Of a stretch of 40,559 nt of DNA, positions 1 to 35,350 are shown one piece after another. The stretch comes from a virus (lineage: Duplodnaviria; Heunggongvirae; Uroviricota; Caudoviricetes), in IMG/VR virus record IMGVR_UViG_2541047813_000005, positions 1 through 40,559 of that record; one strand, 5' to 3'. The translations under genes were made by a program, and so were the position numbers. Every line of letters begins with the position of its first letter. Position 1 is the first letter of the stretch. The notes below the pieces were generated by a model. That model saw nothing but the letters and a program-made list of their open reading frames with translations. It was not told the DNA's origin and did no database searches.

Positions 1-223
1 TCAGCTATCAATGAGAAAATAAAATATAAATAAATCAATGCATTGAAACAAACCACTTAGCAGATACCACGAAAAATACCATGTCTCAATAATAGAGCTG
101 TCTACAGGCTGTTCAGACGAACAATATGGCCGCTCTACTCCTAATAGAGTCCTTAGCTCGGTCACATCACTAATTTCAACATAGATGTGAACAAAATGAG
201 GCATCAACGCACCTATTCAGTTA

Positions 224-1738
224 GTGTATTTGATATCGTATGTGGCAACAAAAAATGGAGTTACAATCTTGAAAGTAAGCGAGTTATCTAGCCAAATTGG
301 CCGACTTTACGGCTTAAACAACATCAACATAATTATGGGCCGAAACGGTGCGGGAAAAAGTCGTTTCCTTCGTGATATCGAACAAACAATCAGCCAGAAC
401 AAGCAGCAATTTTATGTCCGGTATGTAAGTCCAGAGCGAGCAGGATCGTTCAAGCGTGATGGCACCGTCCTCACAAATATGAGCGACAACCCCGAATGGC
501 TGAGGCACACTCGGGCAGTTAATCAGGCAAGCAACTTCAAAGCTGCATCGGCTATGCTATTTCGCGAGGCCGAGACGCTTTACTTACGTCGACTTGCCAA
601 TACTCCGGAAATTCGAACTGATCTAACGCGAAACTTTCAGACAGACCGATTAAGTAAAATTAATCAGCTTCTCACTAACATTTCGCTCGAGATGGGTAAT
701 GTCGATTATGAGTTTCGATCACTTGTAGATGGTCAGATTATTGATCCGGCCCAAATCAGTAGCGGTGAATCGGAAGCGGTTGCATTAGCCGCGGAAATCA
801 TCTATTTCTTCGACACAATAGATCCGGAGAAATTCAACGTACTCCTCCTCGATGAGCCTGATGTACATCTGCACCCCGACCTCCAAGCTAGACTGGGCAA
901 GCTGATAATCAGTATGCTCGACGAATTTAGAACACACGCGAACAGTATTGCCATATGCTTATCCACCCATAGTTCCCCGCTCGTCTGTTCTCTTGCCGCC
1001 TCCCCATATGTATCAATCGGCACGAAGAGCTTTGCAGTGAATGAAATCTCATTGATACCGGCCAGCGATGAACTTCGAAAGATTGCACCATTCTTCGGGC
1101 ACCCCCTATCGCTTTCTCTTAGCGAAGACGCTGCATTAATTTTGGAAGGAGAGGACGACGAACGAGTCTGGCAACAAGCGGCCAGAACATCACAGGGTCG
1201 AATAAAAATCTTTCCCGTACTAGCAGGTAGCGTAGATCAACAGAGTCAACTTGAGGATTTTTGCGTAGACCTCCTTAGTACACTCTATGACAATCCAATC
1301 GCCTTTTCCCTTCGTGATGGCGATGGTGTAATCAACGAGTCGCTTGAACATCGCCTACCTCTTAAACGCTATCGCTTACGATGCTACGCTATCGAAAATG
1401 TTCTTTTGACTGATTCATGCCTTGCAGTAATGAATGTTACATGGGTGGAATTTGTAGACGCAGCCAAAAAATGGGTTGAGGATAATCAAACACACTCCGA
1501 CATAGCGTTGATTGCAAAACTAATGGAATCGAACGACCGATTGCGTCACAAGAAGATCAAGAAAATCCGCCAACTCGTCTGTGCTATTGTTGAGTGTAAA
1601 AAACCTTGGGAGGTAGTAGTTGGACAAGCAATCGGGGCATTGACCAGAGAAGACCTTGAAAACTCGAATATGTTGATCGATTTTCTTGGAGGAGAGATGG
1701 TCAGCGACGTCATCTTCAGGGACGCAATAAACCCATGA
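224..1738 (+). CDS. ABC-type ATPase fused to Toprim/OLD-like nuclease domain (candidate anti-phage defence protein)
   Basis: 504-aa ORF; Walker A 'GRNGAGKS', Walker B/D-loop 'LLLDEPDVHLHP', H-loop-like 'STHSSP'; C-terminal acidic motifs 'ILEGEDDE' and 'LRDGDG' resembling the Toprim Glu and DxD; likely true start TTG at 269 (GGAG 8 nt upstream). Confidence 0.65.
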   Translation: MYLISYVATKNGVTILKVSELSSQIGRLYGLNNINIIMGRNGAGKSRFLRDIEQTISQNKQQFYVRYVSPERAGSFKRDGTVLTNMSDNPEWLRHTRAVNQASNFKAASAMLFREAETLYLRRLANTPEIRTDLTRNFQTDRLSKINQLLTNISLEMGNVDYEFRSLVDGQIIDPAQISSGESEAVALAAEIIYFFDTIDPEKFNVLLLDEPDVHLHPDLQARLGKLIISMLDEFRTHANSIAICLSTHSSPLVCSLAASPYVSIGTKSFAVNEISLIPASDELRKIAPFFGHPLSLSLSEDAALILEGEDDERVWQQAARTSQGRIKIFPVLAGSVDQQSQLEDFCVDLLSTLYDNPIAFSLRDGDGVINESLEHRLPLKRYRLRCYAIENVLLTDSCLAVMNVTWVEFVDAAKKWVEDNQTHSDIALIAKLMESNDRLRHKKIKKIRQLVCAIVECKKPWEVVVGQAIGALTREDLENSNMLIDFLGGEMVSDVIFRDAINP

Positions 1739-1753
1739 GAATGACCTGATACT

Positions 1754-2149
1754 ATGACCACGATTGATCCGCCCTCATGGTATCAGTATTTATTTTATAA
1801 CCCGCCTCTCAATACACCAAGAGATTGCGGTAAAGTGGAGCAGCATGATTACCAGCTTTATCTGGCGATAAATGATATTGAGCATACGAAAACGAAAGCA
1901 ATGTCATCTAAGACCAATAGTATCTGCGAGCAGTTCCATAAAACGATACTGAACGAGTTTTATCAGGTGACGTTCCGCAAAAAGTTATATGATGATCTTG
2001 AAGCATTACAATCGGTTCTTGATGAATGGCGGGTTCACTATAATAATGAGCGAACCCATCAGGGAAAAATGTGCAGTGGCCGAACGCCGATGGAAACGTT
2101 ACTTGATGGAAAGCACATCTGGGATGAGAAAAACTTAAGCCAGATGTAA
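1754..2149 (+). pseudogene. IS transposase C-terminal remnant (DDE/rve integrase-core fragment)
   Basis: 131-aa ORF abutting the ATPase stop; C-terminal 'EWRVHYNNERTHQGKMCSGRTPMETL' matches the conserved tail of rve-type transposases; no N-terminal or DD part present. Confidence 0.55.
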
Positions 2150-2242
2150 TCTGACAGATACCTTTATAAATAGCCGGTAATTGTCAGATCAGGTCTGATC
2201 TAATACAACTTAACTGTGTTATGAGCAATACTGAGGATGGAT

Positions 2243-3013
2243 ATGGAACCAGAGAAATTTGCTGAAACTGCAATAGGATTTACCAAAAGCCCTCTTGGTA
2301 TCATTGCACTCTTTATTGTTCTCGTTTATGGATTTGCCTCTTTCGTCGTTGGCTTTGGTAATGGCTTATCAGAGCATATAGCTCCCCTTATTTATTTCAT
2401 GGTTTTCTTTCCTGTCATTGTGTTTCTTGGCTTTCTCTGGCTTGTTGCGAAACATCATAATAAGCTTTACGGGCCGTCAGATTTCAAAGATGAAAATAAT
2501 TTTTTAAGAGCGCAAATAGCTACAGCAGCATCATTGACCGCCGCCACAGCAAAACAGCCTGAAAATAGTGCAGGGGTCACTGAAAGCCAACTGCGAAAAA
2601 TCGTCAACGTTGTATCCAATGCAAAACGGCAGAGTAAGCATGAAAAATGGCGAAATCGTATTTTATGGGTGGATGATCGACCAGAAAATAATGTTTACGA
2701 AAGACAGGCATTTGAGGCACAGGGAATAGAGTTCGCTTTAGCTCTTTCAACTGACGAAGCCTTAGAATTGTTAAAAACAAATAAGTTTGCAGCTATTATT
2801 TCGGATATGGATCGCAAAGAAGGGGCGCAAGAAGGTTATGTCTTACTAGAAAGATTACGCGCAATGGGAGACAAAACTCCTTTTATGATCTATGCGTCCT
2901 CAGATCTACCAGAGCACAAGAGAATGGCGAGAGAAAGAGGTGCAATTGGCTCCACTAATCGAGCAGAAGAACTCTTTCAAATTGTCATGGGTGCGATTAC
3001 CAATGGCTCATAA
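2243..3013 (+). CDS. Membrane protein with two N-terminal TM helices and C-terminal CheY-like receiver (REC)-like domain
   Basis: ORF 2237..3013; ATG at 2243 preceded by GAGGA; hydrophobic segments 'LGIIALFIVLVYGFASFVVGFG' and 'LIYFMVFFPVIVFLGFLWLV'; REC-like pattern 'ILWVDD', 'AAIISDMDR', 'FMIYASSD'; AT-rich codon usage. Confidence 0.55.
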   Translation: MEPEKFAETAIGFTKSPLGIIALFIVLVYGFASFVVGFGNGLSEHIAPLIYFMVFFPVIVFLGFLWLVAKHHNKLYGPSDFKDENNFLRAQIATAASLTAATAKQPENSAGVTESQLRKIVNVVSNAKRQSKHEKWRNRILWVDDRPENNVYERQAFEAQGIEFALALSTDEALELLKTNKFAAIISDMDRKEGAQEGYVLLERLRAMGDKTPFMIYASSDLPEHKRMARERGAIGSTNRAEELFQIVMGAITNGS

Positions 3014-3230
3014 CAAAGCCATTAAATTCGCCCCCTACGGCTACGGTTGCCGGGCGCTCACAACGGCCAGTATCTCATTTGTCGATTTGATCGATCTCAT
3101 TGTAAGCACTTCCGGCTAGACTGTTTTGGAATACCGCCATTTTGTTGGTAATGGCTTTTATCTTTAGGCCATAGCCGATGTTATAGAGTTACGGCCTTAA
3201 AAATAGAAGTCATACACTCAATGAAAAACC

Positions 3231-3263
3231 AATAAAAAATGCCAGTCAGCAAACTGACTGGCA
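3231..3263 (-). terminator. Rho-independent terminator ending the leftward lysis operon
   Basis: Hairpin gccagtcag/ctgactggc (3241..3263) followed on the minus strand by a U-run (plus-strand A-run 3231..3240). Confidence 0.55.
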
Positions 3264-3409
3264 TTAAAGTTAGTTGGAAAGGCTTAATTTACTATTTATA
3301 GCCAGTCCTACTCCCACTCAATTATTTACGACAACCATAACCAATTGAGTGATAACACTTTTCCAAGCCTCAACTTTTCCCGTACCGTTTTATATACCGT
3401 CACCGGAAA

Positions 3410-4831: not shown

Positions 4832-5222
4832 CGTCTTTTCTCCCCGGAATTAACTCGCGTGGATTATCTGAACGGTGATAGAGCCAGATGCCAATTCGAA
4901 CTGCGACGATTGCTGACACGAATGCACCAGCAGAGAAAACAATCCCTTTCTCAAAAGAGTCCTGTGTGATGGTAGGGATCAGGGTGGCTATGCCGATAAG
5001 AATTGATGCTGCTGGTTTGTAAAAGAGAAGACCGCAAAGAAAGCTGAGCATCGACAGGAGCACCCGGCGGCGGATTGGATATTCTACAGCAGAGGTAACA
5101 AAAATTACTGCACCAGCCAAAGAACCCAACGCCACTTCTGGAGGTACTCCAGCTATTACTGCCGCAAGAGAACTCATACTAAGCCACTGATTTAAAGACT
5201 CACTAGTTAGTTGAACTGACAT
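4818..5222 (-). CDS. Putative holin / lysis-cassette membrane protein
   Basis: 134 aa, multiple predicted TM segments, first gene of the lysis cassette, overlaps next gene by 14 nt. Confidence 0.45.
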   Translation of the reverse strand: MSVQLTSESLNQWLSMSSLAAVIAGVPPEVALGSLAGAVIFVTSAVEYPIRRRVLLSMLSFLCGLLFYKPAASILIGIATLIPTITQDSFEKGIVFSAGAFVSAIVAVRIGIWLYHRSDNPRELIPGRKDDGNA

Positions 5223-5378
5223 AAAGACCGCCGATTACTGTGTATAATCCACCCCATTGGTTATTGGGTTTATAATACACATAAACCATATATGAATTAA
5301 ATTTTATGAGTCCACCTATCTCTAAATTACCCGTGAGGTGATATTGTTTCGTATCGCTATTTCCTACAGTATGGATAT

Positions 5379-5740
5379 ATGAATAACAGACATAATTGCT
5401 TTGACGTGATCAGGCTTATCGCATCACTTGTAGTCCTTGTAAGCCATCAATACCCAATTAGCGGCAGACCTGAGCCTTGCTTTTTCGGACTTACGTCGAT
5501 AGGTGGCATTGCTGTAATTGCTTTTTTCGCCCAACTAAACGTAACATCTTCGAAAAATATGCAAAGATTAGGATCAATCAGCGGATGATTTTTATCCATT
5601 CATTTTGCGCGGGTAAGTTATGTGGTGGGTTATCGGCATCCTTTCCGTGGTTCTCATCGTGGCGACGCTTGTCGTTAGGTCACATCTGCAGGATATTGAT
5701 AATGACTATTAGCCATAAGTGGTTTCAACGCTTTGGGTAA
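5379..5740 (+). pseudogene. Truncated/frameshifted acyltransferase-3 family (O-antigen acetyltransferase-like) lysogenic-conversion gene remnant
   Basis: N-terminus 'MNNRHNCFDVIRLIASLVVLVSHQ' matches the acyltransferase_3 start motif; reading frame breaks after about 70 aa; only about 120 codons remain before the convergent tailspike gene. Confidence 0.5.
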
Positions 5741-8078
5741 TGTAGTAGGCCACCCAGTTACCTGACTCATTAAATCTGTAAGCACAATTCAAACGAATCG
5801 GACCGATATTATTGAATGTGCTGAGCATTGTCCCACCAATACCATTTTTAACCAAAACTGTTGGGTTAGCAGATGATGACCCGGCTATCTTTATGTAAAC
5901 AATATCACCAACTACGGCAGACACTTTATCCAGCTCAATTGAATAGGTGAAGGCACCTGTACCAGCACTCATGATGATGTAGTACCTGGAGGGGTCAAGC
6001 CTTGGTTCTATTGTTAAAGTCCCAGCTGCTGCCACAGTGTGGTCGAGAAAGGTTCTCACCTGGAGGCTTGTATTTTGTGGAAACCTCGCCCTTGCCCTGT
6101 TGAAAGCGGGATCCATCACTGCGTAAAGTGGGCGAACGTTGTTTCTGTAGGATCTAACCAGAACATCACTACCGTGGAAGTCGTTGCTTTGTGATCCAGA
6201 AAGTGAGTGAACTGCCTCGACCTGGTTAATTGTCCCCTCTCCGACATAGCAGTCAGGGCTATTAACCACAAAATCGACGAACCTGATGTTTTGCGCAAAG
6301 TATGAGTTCAGGCGGAATGTGCTGTTTGTCGAGTTAACTACTGACTGAGCATTTGTGATTGAGTTGCCGACGATTGCGTGAATAGAGTTGATAGTCACTT
6401 CCTGGCAGTCAACCAGAAGCACCGCATCGTAAACAAGGTCAGTGGCAAATCCATCACTTTTATAGACTTCAATGTTTCCGATTTGCAGGGATGGCCTGTT
6501 TCTGGCTCGTACTCCGTTTTGCTTAACGTTGACGTGTACGTTATCGATAAATCCACCTGGCTCGCTGGCTGGGTTGGTTAGGTCGATTCCAACAAATGCC
6601 CCAAGCCCTTCGCTGTCCTTGACAACAAACCCTTCAACGCCGTCACTCAGTTCGACAAACTTCCACCAGTTGTTTGTGTTGAATCTGATGTCTACACCTA
6701 CGTTACCTCGAACGGACTTCATCTTAACGGCCACGCACTGGAATTGCGTACCTTCAACCTGCTGCACGTTATAGCTGCCGTATCCAGTGACATGCACTGA
6801 GCCGCTAAAAGCGTCGCCAATCAGCATGCCATTTACCCACGAATACTGTAGCACCGTCAGGTCATCACGCCCCTGTTGAGGACCGAAATGCGCTCCTAAT
6901 TTGAACTTCGCCCGGTGCGCAGTGAACATTTCCTCCCTGAGTGGAGTAAGAATACCGTACCGACCATTTCCGTTTTCCAGGCGAATCATGAATTTTCCGA
7001 TGTCGGCTTCTCCCTGGGAATAACTGGACTCCGGGTAGCTAACGGCCAGACCTACGGTCGATGCTGAGTCAGCATCCTTCACGCATAACTGGGTTTCTGT
7101 CCCAGCCGTATAAATTTTCACGCCATAGGGAACGGTTACGCACGCCGTCAGTGCGGAATCCCCTGTATGGTAGTTATCCATATCCAGAGAAACACCATTT
7201 GTAGGGCTCACCAGATATTTTCCTGCTGGCCAATAGAGTACCTTAGCTCCGCAATTGGACCAGCGGTTTAGGGCAAGAGTGTCATCTGCAATACCATCTC
7301 CCTTTGCTCCGAAGTGGTAAGGGGTAAGAAGATAGGTGTTGTGCTGATGTTGAGTAATAGTTACAGAATTAGCATAAGGTTGTTTAACTGCAACTAAAGC
7401 ATCCCCCTTTCCATCGGAAGAACTTGCTAACTGAATAAGCACATCAGATGCTGAACCAGATGGAGGAATAACAACAATCGCATTACCATCATTATCAAAT
7501 GCTGGCATCATATTCCGCCGAACTGCTGCTGGAGGTAACTGATTTATTGGCTCAGGAACTCGGAGAGTTCGGCTAAGGTTAGAGAATACAATGGTATCTA
7601 CATAGTTTTTTGTAGCTGCATCCTGAGGGTCGCGTGGGTCTTTCAGATTACGAATATAGTTATTAAGTGCGTCATACCAATTCGCTATACTGGATGGCTT
7701 ACACAACGCCAGCCGGAACCAGCTTCGAACCTGCTGAATCAGCATCGTTAGCTTATCAAAAGCATCCTCATGCACTTCTGCAAAGAACTTACCCTGATTA
7801 CGCAAATCAGTTTCCTGCGTAACCGGGAGGTCTCGTGATATAGAAATCTGATAACCGTTAGCCAACGCCTTCGACAGAATTACATTACCGCCGTTGTACC
7901 CTCCCGCACCAGTTACTGTGTAATCAGTATCAAGAGCCAGCACAGCAATATTTTCATCAAGGTCAACCACCTGAACAACCAGGTCTGATTTTTTGAAAAT
8001 ACGGAAGGTATACGGAAATGATGTCGTAACGCCGTTACCTGTGTATTCGTTGTGGTCAACTTCGGTTGAGACCGTCAT
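5709..8078 (-). CDS. Tailspike / tail fibre protein (receptor-binding)
   Basis: 789 aa; N-terminus 'MTVSTEVDHNEYTGNGVTTSFPYTFRIF' resembles the conserved particle-binding domain of podovirus tailspikes; Gly/Asn/Val-rich body consistent with beta-helix. Confidence 0.75.
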   Translation of the reverse strand: MTVSTEVDHNEYTGNGVTTSFPYTFRIFKKSDLVVQVVDLDENIAVLALDTDYTVTGAGGYNGGNVILSKALANGYQISISRDLPVTQETDLRNQGKFFAEVHEDAFDKLTMLIQQVRSWFRLALCKPSSIANWYDALNNYIRNLKDPRDPQDAATKNYVDTIVFSNLSRTLRVPEPINQLPPAAVRRNMMPAFDNDGNAIVVIPPSGSASDVLIQLASSSDGKGDALVAVKQPYANSVTITQHQHNTYLLTPYHFGAKGDGIADDTLALNRWSNCGAKVLYWPAGKYLVSPTNGVSLDMDNYHTGDSALTACVTVPYGVKIYTAGTETQLCVKDADSASTVGLAVSYPESSYSQGEADIGKFMIRLENGNGRYGILTPLREEMFTAHRAKFKLGAHFGPQQGRDDLTVLQYSWVNGMLIGDAFSGSVHVTGYGSYNVQQVEGTQFQCVAVKMKSVRGNVGVDIRFNTNNWWKFVELSDGVEGFVVKDSEGLGAFVGIDLTNPASEPGGFIDNVHVNVKQNGVRARNRPSLQIGNIEVYKSDGFATDLVYDAVLLVDCQEVTINSIHAIVGNSITNAQSVVNSTNSTFRLNSYFAQNIRFVDFVVNSPDCYVGEGTINQVEAVHSLSGSQSNDFHGSDVLVRSYRNNVRPLYAVMDPAFNRARARFPQNTSLQVRTFLDHTVAAAGTLTIEPRLDPSRYYIIMSAGTGAFTYSIELDKVSAVVGDIVYIKIAGSSSANPTVLVKNGIGGTMLSTFNNIGPIRLNCAYRFNESGNWVAYYITQSVETTYG

Positions 8079-8182
8079 GTTAAATCTCCAGATAGTCGCA
8101 GCACCCGTTGCGCCGCATATCTGGTTATTCTATTACCTGAAAAACCAGATATGGATAGCAAGACTGCAAATACGAATAGATA

Positions 8183-8197
8183 TTACCTTTCGGGTAA
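8183..8197. promoter_or_regulatory. Palindromic operator-like site ATTACC-TTTCG-GGTAAT
   Basis: Perfect TTACC-N5-GGTAA dyad in the intergenic region between the tailspike start and the small plus-strand ORF. Confidence 0.45.
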
Positions 8198-8272
8198 TTT
8201 GCAAAACGTGCTGGATAGCCAATAAATTATTTGGTACTGTTTATTAATACAGTTATTACATGGAGAGATAAG

Positions 8273-8530
8273 ATGCAGCGGTATCACTATCCACTGGAAG
8301 AAGGATTTACCGAAAGGATTCACACGCCGGGAGGCGTCAGGTCACTGGTGGAGGGATCGCACTTGATGAAATTACTCCGGGATCTCGATAAGGATGGATT
8401 TAATGTCGATGGCCCACTTGCCGAACTGACTGCACTGATTAACTACGTCACCAGCTCACAGATGTCTATGCAGGATCTGCAAACACATCTCGACTATTGT
8501 GCCGAACAACTACGAAAACAAACCACATAA
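8273..8530 (+). CDS. Hypothetical small protein (85 aa), opposite strand to late genes
   Basis: ORF 8231..8530; ATG 8273 with GGAG 7 nt upstream; operator-like site upstream; no recognisable motif. Confidence 0.4.
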   Translation: MQRYHYPLEEGFTERIHTPGGVRSLVEGSHLMKLLRDLDKDGFNVDGPLAELTALINYVTSSQMSMQDLQTHLDYCAEQLRKQTT

Positions 8531-8552
8531 AGAAAAGGCCGCGAAAGCGGCC
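8528..8552 (-). terminator. Hairpin terminator after small membrane-protein gene
   Basis: ggccgcgaaagcggcc hairpin (8537..8552) followed on the minus strand by UUUUCU. Confidence 0.5.
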
Positions 8553-8561
8553 TGTGACATG

Positions 8562-8858
8562 TCACGTCCCTTTTCTGAATGATAGCCATTCGAAAAATGA
8601 TGACATTCCACCGCAGACAATAGCAAAGATGATCCCACCAAAGAAGAGAAGGCCAGCCTGCCACCACTCCCACCGCCATACATCCACAGCGCCAACCATA
8701 CCAACAATCGCTCCAACAAATGGAATATAGCTCACGATGAAAGCAATGGGGGCTGCAATTATCCAGTGCAATCCCCACCATGATTCAAGCCCAGCCATAA
8801 TTGCTGCCAACTGAAAAAGACCAACGACGATATAAACAATGAATCCTATAGCTTGCAT
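8562..8858 (-). CDS. Small integral membrane protein (hypothetical)
   Basis: 98 aa, almost entirely hydrophobic with Trp-rich segments; stop codon embedded in GTGACATGTCAC palindrome. Confidence 0.5.
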   Translation of the reverse strand: MQAIGFIVYIVVGLFQLAAIMAGLESWWGLHWIIAAPIAFIVSYIPFVGAIVGMVGAVDVWRWEWWQAGLLFFGGIIFAIVCGGMSSFFEWLSFRKGT

Positions 8859-34076: not shown

Positions 34077-34156
34077 GGTAAGACCTGTTATTAGTATTGG
34101 GATTACGGTTATTTTGTGCTGACACAAAAAAAAGATCAACCAGATTTGGTTATTTA

Positions 34157-34171
34157 TTACCTTTGAGGTAC
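34157..34171. promoter_or_regulatory. Operator-like dyad TTACC-TTTGA-GGTAC
   Basis: Between cro-like gene and replication genes. Confidence 0.4.
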
Positions 34172-34180
34172 GAATAGATA

Positions 34181-34205
34181 TGAAAAGACCGCCGGGTGGC
34201 GGTCT
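34181..34205 (-). terminator. Hairpin after cro-like gene (weak terminator, tR1-like position)
   Basis: agaccgcc-gggt-ggcggtct hairpin followed on minus strand by UUUCA. Confidence 0.35.
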
Positions 34206-34493: not shown

Positions 34494-34556
34494 TCACCCA
34501 TAAGGTAACAAAAATCAAGGATAGTTACCCATGAGGTGCATTTACCTGTTGGGTAA
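34494..34556. promoter_or_regulatory. Immunity-region operator cluster (three TTACC-N5-GGTAA-type dyads) with divergent promoters
   Basis: Sites 34494..34508 (TCACC-cataa-GGTAA), 34525..34539 (TTACC-catga-GGTGC), 34542..34556 (TTACC-tgttg-GGTAA) between the cro-like and repressor-like starts. Confidence 0.5.
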
Positions 34557-34611
34557 TATTGCTTTAAATTGAATCATCTACTGATTCATATATGAGGCGA
34601 TTTTCCAGAAA

Positions 34612-35196
34612 ATGAAAAGTATCCAGGACGTCCGCAGGCAAAATCTCAACGACTTGATCGACCGTGAATTCAATGGTGTTCAGACGCGGATGGCAGAAAA
34701 ACTTGGAACTCAGGCAAATCTGGTAAACCGCTGGGCTCTTGGCAAGAAGGTTATCGGCGACCAGGTTGCACGAAAAATTGAAGCTGCCGCCAATAAACCC
34801 CGTAACTGGCTTGATATCGATCGCTCGCTTTCTCAGGAAGGTTTTCAGCCTGTCGGCCCAAGCGACATTGGTCAGCTGGCGGCTCACAACCTGGAACGCT
34901 GGATGAGCGAAAGCCGCGACCTTTCAACGCAGGGAAAACTTCACCGCGCATCCGGCGTCGCCCAGGTGACAATCAGCCGCCTGTTAAACAATGAGGTCAG
35001 CGTTTCCATTTCCACCCTGGAGAATGTTGCATCCGCATTCGGGCGTCATGGCTATGAATTACTGATTCACCCGCACGACCCTGCGACTATCAACTATGAC
35101 CGCTCGCGCTACGCATTGTTACCCGAAACCGAGAAAGCAAAGATCGAAAGTTACATTGAATTTGTCATCAACCAGAACGAAAAAAACAAACAATAA
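34612..35196 (+). CDS. Repressor-like DNA-binding protein with two HTH-like regions (candidate phage repressor)
   Basis: 194 aa; 'QTRMAEKLGTQANLVNRW' and 'ASGVAQVTISRLLNNE' HTH-like segments; no obvious S24 peptidase motif. Confidence 0.55.
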   Translation: MKSIQDVRRQNLNDLIDREFNGVQTRMAEKLGTQANLVNRWALGKKVIGDQVARKIEAAANKPRNWLDIDRSLSQEGFQPVGPSDIGQLAAHNLERWMSESRDLSTQGKLHRASGVAQVTISRLLNNEVSVSISTLENVASAFGRHGYELLIHPHDPATINYDRSRYALLPETEKAKIESYIEFVINQNEKNKQ

Positions 35197-35240: not shown

Positions 35241-35253
35241 ATTGCCTGTTAGA

Positions 35254-35331
35254 TTACCTTTTGGGTAATTTTTTTTAACTCATATCTATTGACATCAAAC
35301 CAGATACGCATAATTATTACCTCAACGGTAA
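35254..35331 (+). promoter_or_regulatory. Early-left promoter with two flanking operator dyads
   Basis: Dyads at 35254..35268 (ATTACC-ttttg-GGTAAT) and 35317..35331 (TTACC-tcaac-GGTAA); TTGACA 35289..35294, 16-nt spacer, TAATTA 35311..35316. Confidence 0.5.
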
Positions 35332-35350
35332 CAGACCGAGGTAACAAGTT

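Follow-up and report, generated by a model that had tools for sequence, protein, structure and literature searches.

The 85-amino acid open reading frame (ORF) encoded antisense to the late genes at 8273-8530 of the window, the whole 40,559-nucleotide stretch of viral DNA analyzed here, is almost certainly ant, as carried by prophages of the epsilon15/phiV10 type (genus Uetakevirus), where it forms part of a Rep-Ant lytic switch of the SPC32H type. Every feature of an SPC32H-type Ant that could be tested was found in the window. Ant acts to terminate lysogeny and is no aid to it. Work on SPC32H has already established the gene, its control by LexA, and the structure of the Ant-repressor complex, and the finding is real but ordinary. 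The references for the Ant/Rep switch of SPC32H are Kim & Ryu 2013 (J Virol 87:11775), Kim et al. 2016 (PNAS 113:E2480), and PDB entries 5D50 and 5D4Z.

The ant gene, its product, and its setting

The window, whose late genes lie on the minus strand, is closest in DNA sequence to the E. coli phages YDC107_2, PAS61, EC.W1-9, TL-2011b, and phiV10 (94-97%), with Salmonella phages epsilon15, SPC32H, and SPN1S and Enterobacter phage Tyrion matching it at ∼77%. The ant gene diverges from the tailspike gene and is convergent with the upstream late genes, an arrangement that is conserved. The genes and sites considered in this section are as follows:

5709-8078, minus strand: tailspike gene (PHROG tail families), diverging from ant on its left side
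8262-8267, plus strand: ribosome-binding site GGAGAG, 5 nt before the ant ATG, as read from the sequence
8273-8530 (stop included), plus strand: ant, the 85-amino acid antirepressor gene, ATG at 8273, 85 codons plus stop
8536-8553, no strand assigned: GC-rich hairpin AGGCCGC/GCGGCCT between the converging ant and late genes, 7 pairs of which 6 are GC
8562-8858, minus strand: 98-amino acid membrane-protein gene (phrog_3075), converging on ant from its right side

Beyond the 98-amino acid gene, a 57-amino acid ORF and then an 824-amino acid virion protein gene also converge on ant. The same order (leftward tailspike, rightward ant, leftward small membrane protein, leftward large virion protein) recurs in SPC32H, epsilon15, phiV10, 65FD, Tyrion, BUCT554, and E. 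coli chromosomes. A sequence-only reading of this region had described an 85-amino acid ORF with a good ribosome-binding site, set antisense between the tailspike and a small membrane-protein gene, and had suggested a separately controlled regulator embedded amid late genes. This description is borne out: the ORF is intact, both neighbors lie on the minus strand, and operators upstream and a hairpin downstream set the gene apart. The ORF is also kept and undisrupted in close and distant relatives, and the GGAG of its ribosome-binding site is unchanged in all 13 sequences of an alignment of 8079-8272, which comprised the window and 12 relatives (phiV10, four E. coli chromosomes, SPC32H, SPC32N, epsilon15, 65FD, Tyrion, BUCT554, and a Klebsiella phage).

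The identity of the product comes from protein comparisons. Searched as a single sequence against the PDB (phmmer), the ORF matched chain E of entry 5D50, 'Anti-repressor protein', with an E value of 1.2e-47 over residues 2-85 versus 3-86. A profile of the family matched the same chain over its full length (E 6.6e-52), and 5D50, titled 'Crystal structure of Rep-Ant complex from Salmonella-temperate phage', was the sole entry matched. The syntenic SPC32H_020 is annotated ant, and its product is 90% identical to the window ORF (BLASTP). In PHROGs, the ORF falls in phrog_450 (unknown function; E 2.7e-47), with a weaker match to the C-terminus of phrog_1760, 'anti-repressor'. No model in Pfam or NCBIfam matched Ant, the sole Pfam trace being a sub-threshold DUF724. 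Pfam and PHROG scans found no DNA-binding family, no ribbon-helix-helix, and no similarity to Mnt or Arc, and the domain scan of the protein revealed no membrane or exclusion-type features. An analogy to P22 Mnt, drawn from the immI-like position and a 'KQTT' C-terminus, was dropped because no DNA-binding family matched and PDB 5D50 did. An AlphaFold2 monomer of Ant consisted of five helices and zero strands, with no N-terminal strand, at moderate confidence (pLDDT 69). Despite 91% sequence identity, it superposed poorly on the 5D50 chains (TM 0.42), and structural comparison of the model with the PDB gained nothing over the sequence match. At a guess, the modeled Ant is an extended helical subunit whose shape is set by its oligomer.

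The family is widespread among enterobacteria and narrow in sequence. Protein searching yielded 134 clusters (90% identity level) with members from Escherichia, Salmonella, Citrobacter, Klebsiella, Enterobacter, Cedecea, Yersinia, and other hosts, nearly all of 85-86 amino acids and some carrying the UniRef name 'Anti-repressor protein'. The family is compact: when 1.84 billion cluster representatives were searched with a profile, no more than 54 relatives emerged, all of them Ant-like, and this search gave no link to the Tum or Gifsy antirepressors. Compared with the Salmonella and Enterobacter phage orthologues, ant has a dN/dS of 0.04-0.07 (∼0.05) at synonymous sites that are saturated (dS ∼1.4-2.3), and these ratios indicate that the gene is under strong purifying selection. 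The ant region was found at the same position in 531 of 5426 complete E. coli genomes (∼10%), where the gene is annotated 'hypothetical protein' among the matches listed. Variable presence among related phages, as would be characteristic of a moron, was not seen in the 35 matching phage records, all of which carry ant, or in the 531 E. coli genomes. The gene is thus a fixed part of the genus and not variable cargo.

The slot directly 3' of ant holds variable cargo (loci L001, L003, L010, L011, L013, and L014). It is occupied in the window, as in strains GF4 and F1005, by the 98-amino acid membrane protein gene on the late strand; in phiV10, Tyrion, 2015C-4944, ZX5, and the Klebsiella phage by a Bro-N antirepressor gene on the ant strand, sometimes with others; and in SCU-101 by a gene for a 242-amino acid hypothetical protein. 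In the Tyrion record, only a 54-amino acid C-terminal piece of ant is annotated (gp21, 3369-3533 of L003), and the full 86-amino acid ant ORF is intact upstream of it, with an ATG, a ribosome-binding site, and a LexA box.

The sequence-only reading had placed a shared hairpin downstream of the gene. The stem is real, and in a 56-nt context it folds at -17.9 kcal/mol (z -3.6), but a terminator scan found a T-tail after it on the minus strand only, so that it can be called an intrinsic terminator for that strand alone. The location of the U-tail makes the hairpin foremost a terminator of the converging late transcript, and the epsilon15 record marks the counterpart stem-loop as a rho-independent terminator of the late strand. 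The hairpin mainly keeps late transcription from continuing antisense into ant; on the ant mRNA, it forms a 3' stem that lacks a canonical tail.

Between the holin-like gene and the end of the tailspike gene lie only ∼490 bp (5223-5708), a place that in phiV10 and SPC32H is filled by a complete O-antigen acetyltransferase gene. A remnant of oac at 5379-5588 was considered and rejected, since the short ORFs at 5379-5588 and 5477-5740 showed no similarity to phiV10 Oac. The serotype-conversion gene thus seems to be absent or cut down to a remnant, and a Rep-type operator with one mismatch (5326-5342) persists in this stretch. To the left of the lysis genes, positions 1-3400 look unlike phage DNA and encode a 504-amino acid AAA ATPase (AAA_15/AbiEii-like AAA_21), an IS integrase-core fragment (rve_3), and a response-regulator receiver-domain protein; this is probably flanking or island DNA past the prophage end.

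The control region upstream of ant

Three perfect dyads lie in the intergenic region upstream of ant (8079-8272). The elements discussed below are:

8116-8126 and 8143-8153, no strand assigned: arms of the long dyad, CATATCTGGTT and AACCAGATATG, with 11 of 11 bases paired
8127-8155, minus strand: candidate tailspike promoter, -35 TCCATA (8155 to 8150), 17-nt spacer, -10 TAGAAT (8132 to 8127)
8182-8198, no strand assigned: Rep operator of 17 bp, ATTACCTTTCGGGTAAT, a perfect palindrome (ATTACC-TTTCG-GGTAAT)
8212-8240, plus strand: candidate ant promoter, -35 TGGATA (8212-8217), 17-nt spacer, -10 TACTGT (8235-8240)
8235-8254, no strand assigned: LexA (SOS) box TACTGTTTATTAATACAGTT, an exact CTGT-N8-ACAG match
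34156-34172, 34541-34557, 35253-35269, and 35316-35332, no strand assigned: Rep operators of the same motif around rep and cro

The sequence-only reading spoke of a perfect operator dyad upstream of the gene, leaving unsaid which one was meant. Conservation favors the two shorter palindromes as operators: the ORF, the Rep-operator dyad, and the LexA dyad are all kept in the 12 relatives, and the most conspicuous dyad, with 11-bp arms, is not.

The palindrome nearest to the gene, a TACTGT-N8-ACAGT dyad at 8235-8253, is a strong LexA box. Against a matrix made from E. coli SOS boxes, with a training-set median of 19.5, it scored 23.9; the second-ranking site of the window reached 10.5, and the top score among 50 shuffles was 17.5. 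CTGT-N8-ACAG is kept throughout the alignment save in the Klebsiella phage (one mismatch) and SPC32N, and the bases that flank the box diverge among the 12 relatives. The window box aligns column for column with that of SPC32H. Over a span of 1554 bp, SPC32H and SPC32N differ at only two bases, one of which is a C to A change in the ACAG of the box that lowers its score from 25.1 to 18.7. Kim & Ryu reportedly found in 2013 that these two phages are two nucleotides apart and that a point mutation in the LexA site makes Ant constitutive. The base difference seen in the box agrees with such a mutation. Kim & Ryu 2013 is also among the work cited in a review for Salmonella prophages whose antirepressor, an inhibitor of the repressor, can be made once LexA has cleaved itself (PMC7380047).

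A scan for consensus promoters upstream of ant found none, the candidate hexamers being weak and below threshold, so the hexamers of the candidate ant promoter are proposed on conservation only: the TGCTGGATAG block is unchanged in 12 of the 13 aligned sequences. Since TGGATA lies 17 nt ahead of TACTGT, the LexA box would cover the -10 element. An alternative promoter would use TTGCAA (8199-8204) as its -35 and 8223-8228, which is poorly conserved, as its -10. The location of the strong, conserved LexA box between putative promoter elements and the ribosome-binding site predicts that ant is silent in an uninduced lysogen and expressed during the SOS response. By homology to SPC32H, LexA would bind this box and ant would be SOS-induced in this phage as well.

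These results bear directly on the proposal in the sequence-only reading that the gene is a lysogeny-expressed moron, that is, an accessory gene with its own operator that serves, for example, in superinfection exclusion. Such a gene could well lie on the strand opposite to the late genes, with its own control region, and next to a slot for variable cargo, as ant does. The strong, conserved LexA box nonetheless would keep ant repressed as long as the lysogen is not induced, the protein shares 90% identity with a characterized antirepressor and bears no membrane or exclusion-type features, and ant is present in 35 of 35 phage records and fixed in the genus. This claim of the earlier reading falls, and we give the moron explanation virtually no weight against that of an SOS-controlled antirepressor gene.

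The second conserved palindrome is one of a set of Rep operators. Allowing up to 2 mismatches, ATTACC-N5-GGTAAT occurs 13 times in the window as compared to 1.07 expected, and none of 100 shuffles reached 13. The sites start at 4863, 5326, 8182, 25129, 25746, 28648, 28666, 32166, 32228, 34156, 34541, 35253, and 35316. Genes with such a site upstream are those for terminase, the gp3-like protein, and resolvase, as well as ant, rep/cro, and the early-left genes. At 8182-8198 the arms are invariant among the aligned relatives and the 5-bp spacer is variable, which is the pattern expected for a protein-binding site. Applied to epsilon15, this pattern picks out exactly those seven sites that are annotated 'protein_bind: repressor', including one upstream of gp19, the ant orthologue. 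The layout in the window thus matches the annotated epsilon15 repressor sites, and the scattered operators are nearer to the C1 operators of phage P1 than to the two operator clusters of lambda. An exact 13-mer, TACGAATAGATAT, is common to the ant control region (8171-8183) and to 34169-34181, just after the cro terminator.

The long dyad folds strongly (z -5.9), but it is perfect solely in the window, where the G at 8148 that completes it is unique among the aligned sequences. The right arms of the relatives read AACCACATATG or AACCTTATATG and their left arms vary; the arms differ by a single mismatch in GF4 and SCU-101 and by two in phiV10 and F1005, and the dyad is missing altogether from the Salmonella and Enterobacter phages. 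No compensating changes between the arms were found in the alignment of 13, and the long dyad was rejected as a conserved operator or RNA hairpin because it is perfect only here and uncompensated. Its half-site has 9 matches in the window versus 0.66 expected, most of the others in coding DNA. The 8-mer AACCAGAT has 12 copies in the window versus 1.4 expected, four of which are in regulatory intergenic DNA (8119, 8143, 34138, and 35298). What is kept inside the long dyad is TATTACC and AACC..ATATG, which on the minus strand read as T(T/C)CATA, 17 nt, and TA(G/C/A)AAT (TAAACT in BUCT554). These are the key positions of the candidate tailspike promoter, which are conserved among the 13 aligned sequences, and the promoter shares bases with a GGTAAT Rep half-site. 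An A/T-rich, -10-like sequence also comes directly after several of the other Rep operators. The block is therefore read as a probable promoter for the tailspike gene with a Rep half-site in it. Because the late transcript coming from upstream is apparently stopped at 8536-8553, this gene may depend on a promoter of its own.

In P22, the immI region lies between genes for injection-type virion proteins and the tailspike. Because ant occupies a matching position, its product could be imagined as a small Mnt/Arc-like DNA-binding regulator of an immI-like region that itself binds the upstream dyads. The protein is indeed small, helical, and probably oligomeric, and a Bro-N antirepressor gene is next on the same strand in phiV10, Tyrion, ZX5, and others. 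Yet it matches no DNA-binding family, with only the sub-threshold DUF724 from Pfam, its homologue is a protein-binding antirepressor crystallized with Rep, and LexA and Rep account for the conserved dyads. In addition, the window has no Bro-N gene downstream of ant to regulate. We regard an Mnt/Arc-like role as extremely improbable.

The repressor Rep and the predicted switch

The predicted target of Ant is encoded at the other end of the window:

34612-35196, plus strand: rep, the 194-amino acid prophage repressor, predicted Ant target

Rep matches chain A of 5D50, 'Repressor', over its full length (E 4e-42), as well as 5D4Z, and is 42% identical to epsilon15 gp38. Identity to the crystallized Rep is also 42%, with 51% in the N-terminal domain and 39% in the C-terminal domain. 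Only helix-turn-helix domains were found in Rep by Pfam and PHROG, and the peptidase S24 self-cleavage domain is absent in both. The DNA of the rep region is 97-98% identical to that of the phiV10 and ZX5 repressors, and overexpression of the near-identical ZX5 repressor blocks lytic growth and abolishes free phage (PMC9782041). [quoted passage not shown]

These features suggest the following course of events. In the lysogen, host LexA would occupy 8235-8254, overlapping or directly after the ant promoter, and silence ant. Rep has two helix-turn-helix domains and is without a RecA-stimulated self-cleavage domain, so that DNA damage could not inactivate it directly. Damage would instead cause LexA to cleave itself, after which ant would be transcribed. 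The small, all-helical Ant would then bind Rep and strip it from the dispersed 17-bp operators, turning on the lytic genes. That Ant binds Rep in this phage is proposed by homology, because its Rep is just 42% identical to the crystallized one.

Constraint on the components of the switch is uneven: relative to the Salmonella phage orthologues, identity is 87-91% for Ant but only 42% for its partner Rep, and the arms of the operators stay the same. Ant of the E. coli lineage might conceivably be an orthologue that does not act via the diverged Rep, being redundant with Bro-N or having another target. The disparity in identity between Ant and Rep across E. coli and Salmonella phages speaks for this, and the 2022 paper on ZX5 (vB_EcoP_ZX5, L014) gives the antirepressor role to the Bro-N protein ORF4 (PMC9782041). 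However, the window, GF4, and F1005 have no adjoining Bro-N gene, yet their ant, LexA box, and operator are intact. The strong purifying selection on ant argues for function, the match of Rep to 5D50_A is full-length and includes the C-terminal domain, which Kim et al. 2016 reportedly give as the binding site of Ant, and the operator arms have not changed. An Ant that bypasses Rep is therefore very unlikely, and Rep is retained as the predicted target.

Related systems and implications

The closest known system is SPC32H, with which the window shares a 90% identical Ant, the same two-domain layout of Rep, the same gene position and orientation, the same LexA box position, and the same 17-bp operator arms. 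Three differences were noted: the window Rep is the E. coli phiV10-type repressor, only 42% identical; the spacer of the LexA box differs (TTATTAAT); and SPC32H is without the 98-amino acid membrane-protein gene (phrog_3075) found downstream of ant here. Kim & Ryu are said to have described Ant as structurally distinct from the antirepressors of Sipho- and Myoviridae. Tum of 186 and of Fels-2 and GfoA/GfhA of Gifsy-1/3 (Shearwin 1998; Lemire et al. 2011, PMC3121763) are also LexA-controlled antirepressors. They follow the same logic, in which the repressor cannot be cleaved and a small antirepressor under LexA repression senses the SOS response (PMC7380047), but showed no similarity to Ant in any search.

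In P22, a short-tailed temperate phage, the immI region (mnt, arc, and ant) likewise places an antirepressor module between virion-protein genes and the tailspike. The position is of the same kind as that of ant in the window, but P22 Ant is large, unrelated, and controlled by Mnt, Arc, and an antisense RNA and not by LexA. The P22 c2 repressor is RecA-cleavable, and ant mutants stay SOS-inducible (PMC7380047). Among the Bro-N/Rha/AntA-type 'antirepressors' (phrog_1760), some have a C-terminal domain of ∼80 amino acids that is homologous to the whole of Ant. Such a domain is found in P0130 (Rha, 319 amino acids), P0131 (Bro-N, 236 amino acids), P0164 (Bro-N, 183 amino acids), P0133 (AntA, 216 amino acids), and P0128, with E values of 1e-16 to 4e-4 between Ant and these fusion proteins. 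Unlike them, the window Ant stands alone, without an N-terminal domain.

Two extensions of the SPC32H scheme can be considered. The conserved Rep operator at 8182-8198 sits between the candidate ant promoter and the probable divergent tailspike promoter, and Rep may additionally repress ant, the tailspike gene, or the two together. If Rep represses ant, production of Ant would be self-reinforcing once removal of Rep starts. From the sequence homology to the fusion proteins, Ant may be the stand-alone version of a portable repressor-binding module. If true, this could explain target recognition by the widespread, poorly understood Rha/Bro-N/AntA 'antirepressors'. Both ideas lie, to our knowledge, outside published work, and taken together, a double lock on ant by LexA and Rep and a portable Ant module are possible but rather doubtful.

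Otherwise there is little new biology in the finding, and its practical value lies in annotation. The ZX5 paper, for example, mentions neither SPC32H nor LexA (PMC9782041), and in the ZX5 record the small Ant homologue directly upstream of the Bro-N gene is labeled a hypothetical protein. Where ant, its LexA box, and Rep are recognized, the prophages that carry them should be SOS-inducible via an antirepressor and not via cleavage of the repressor.
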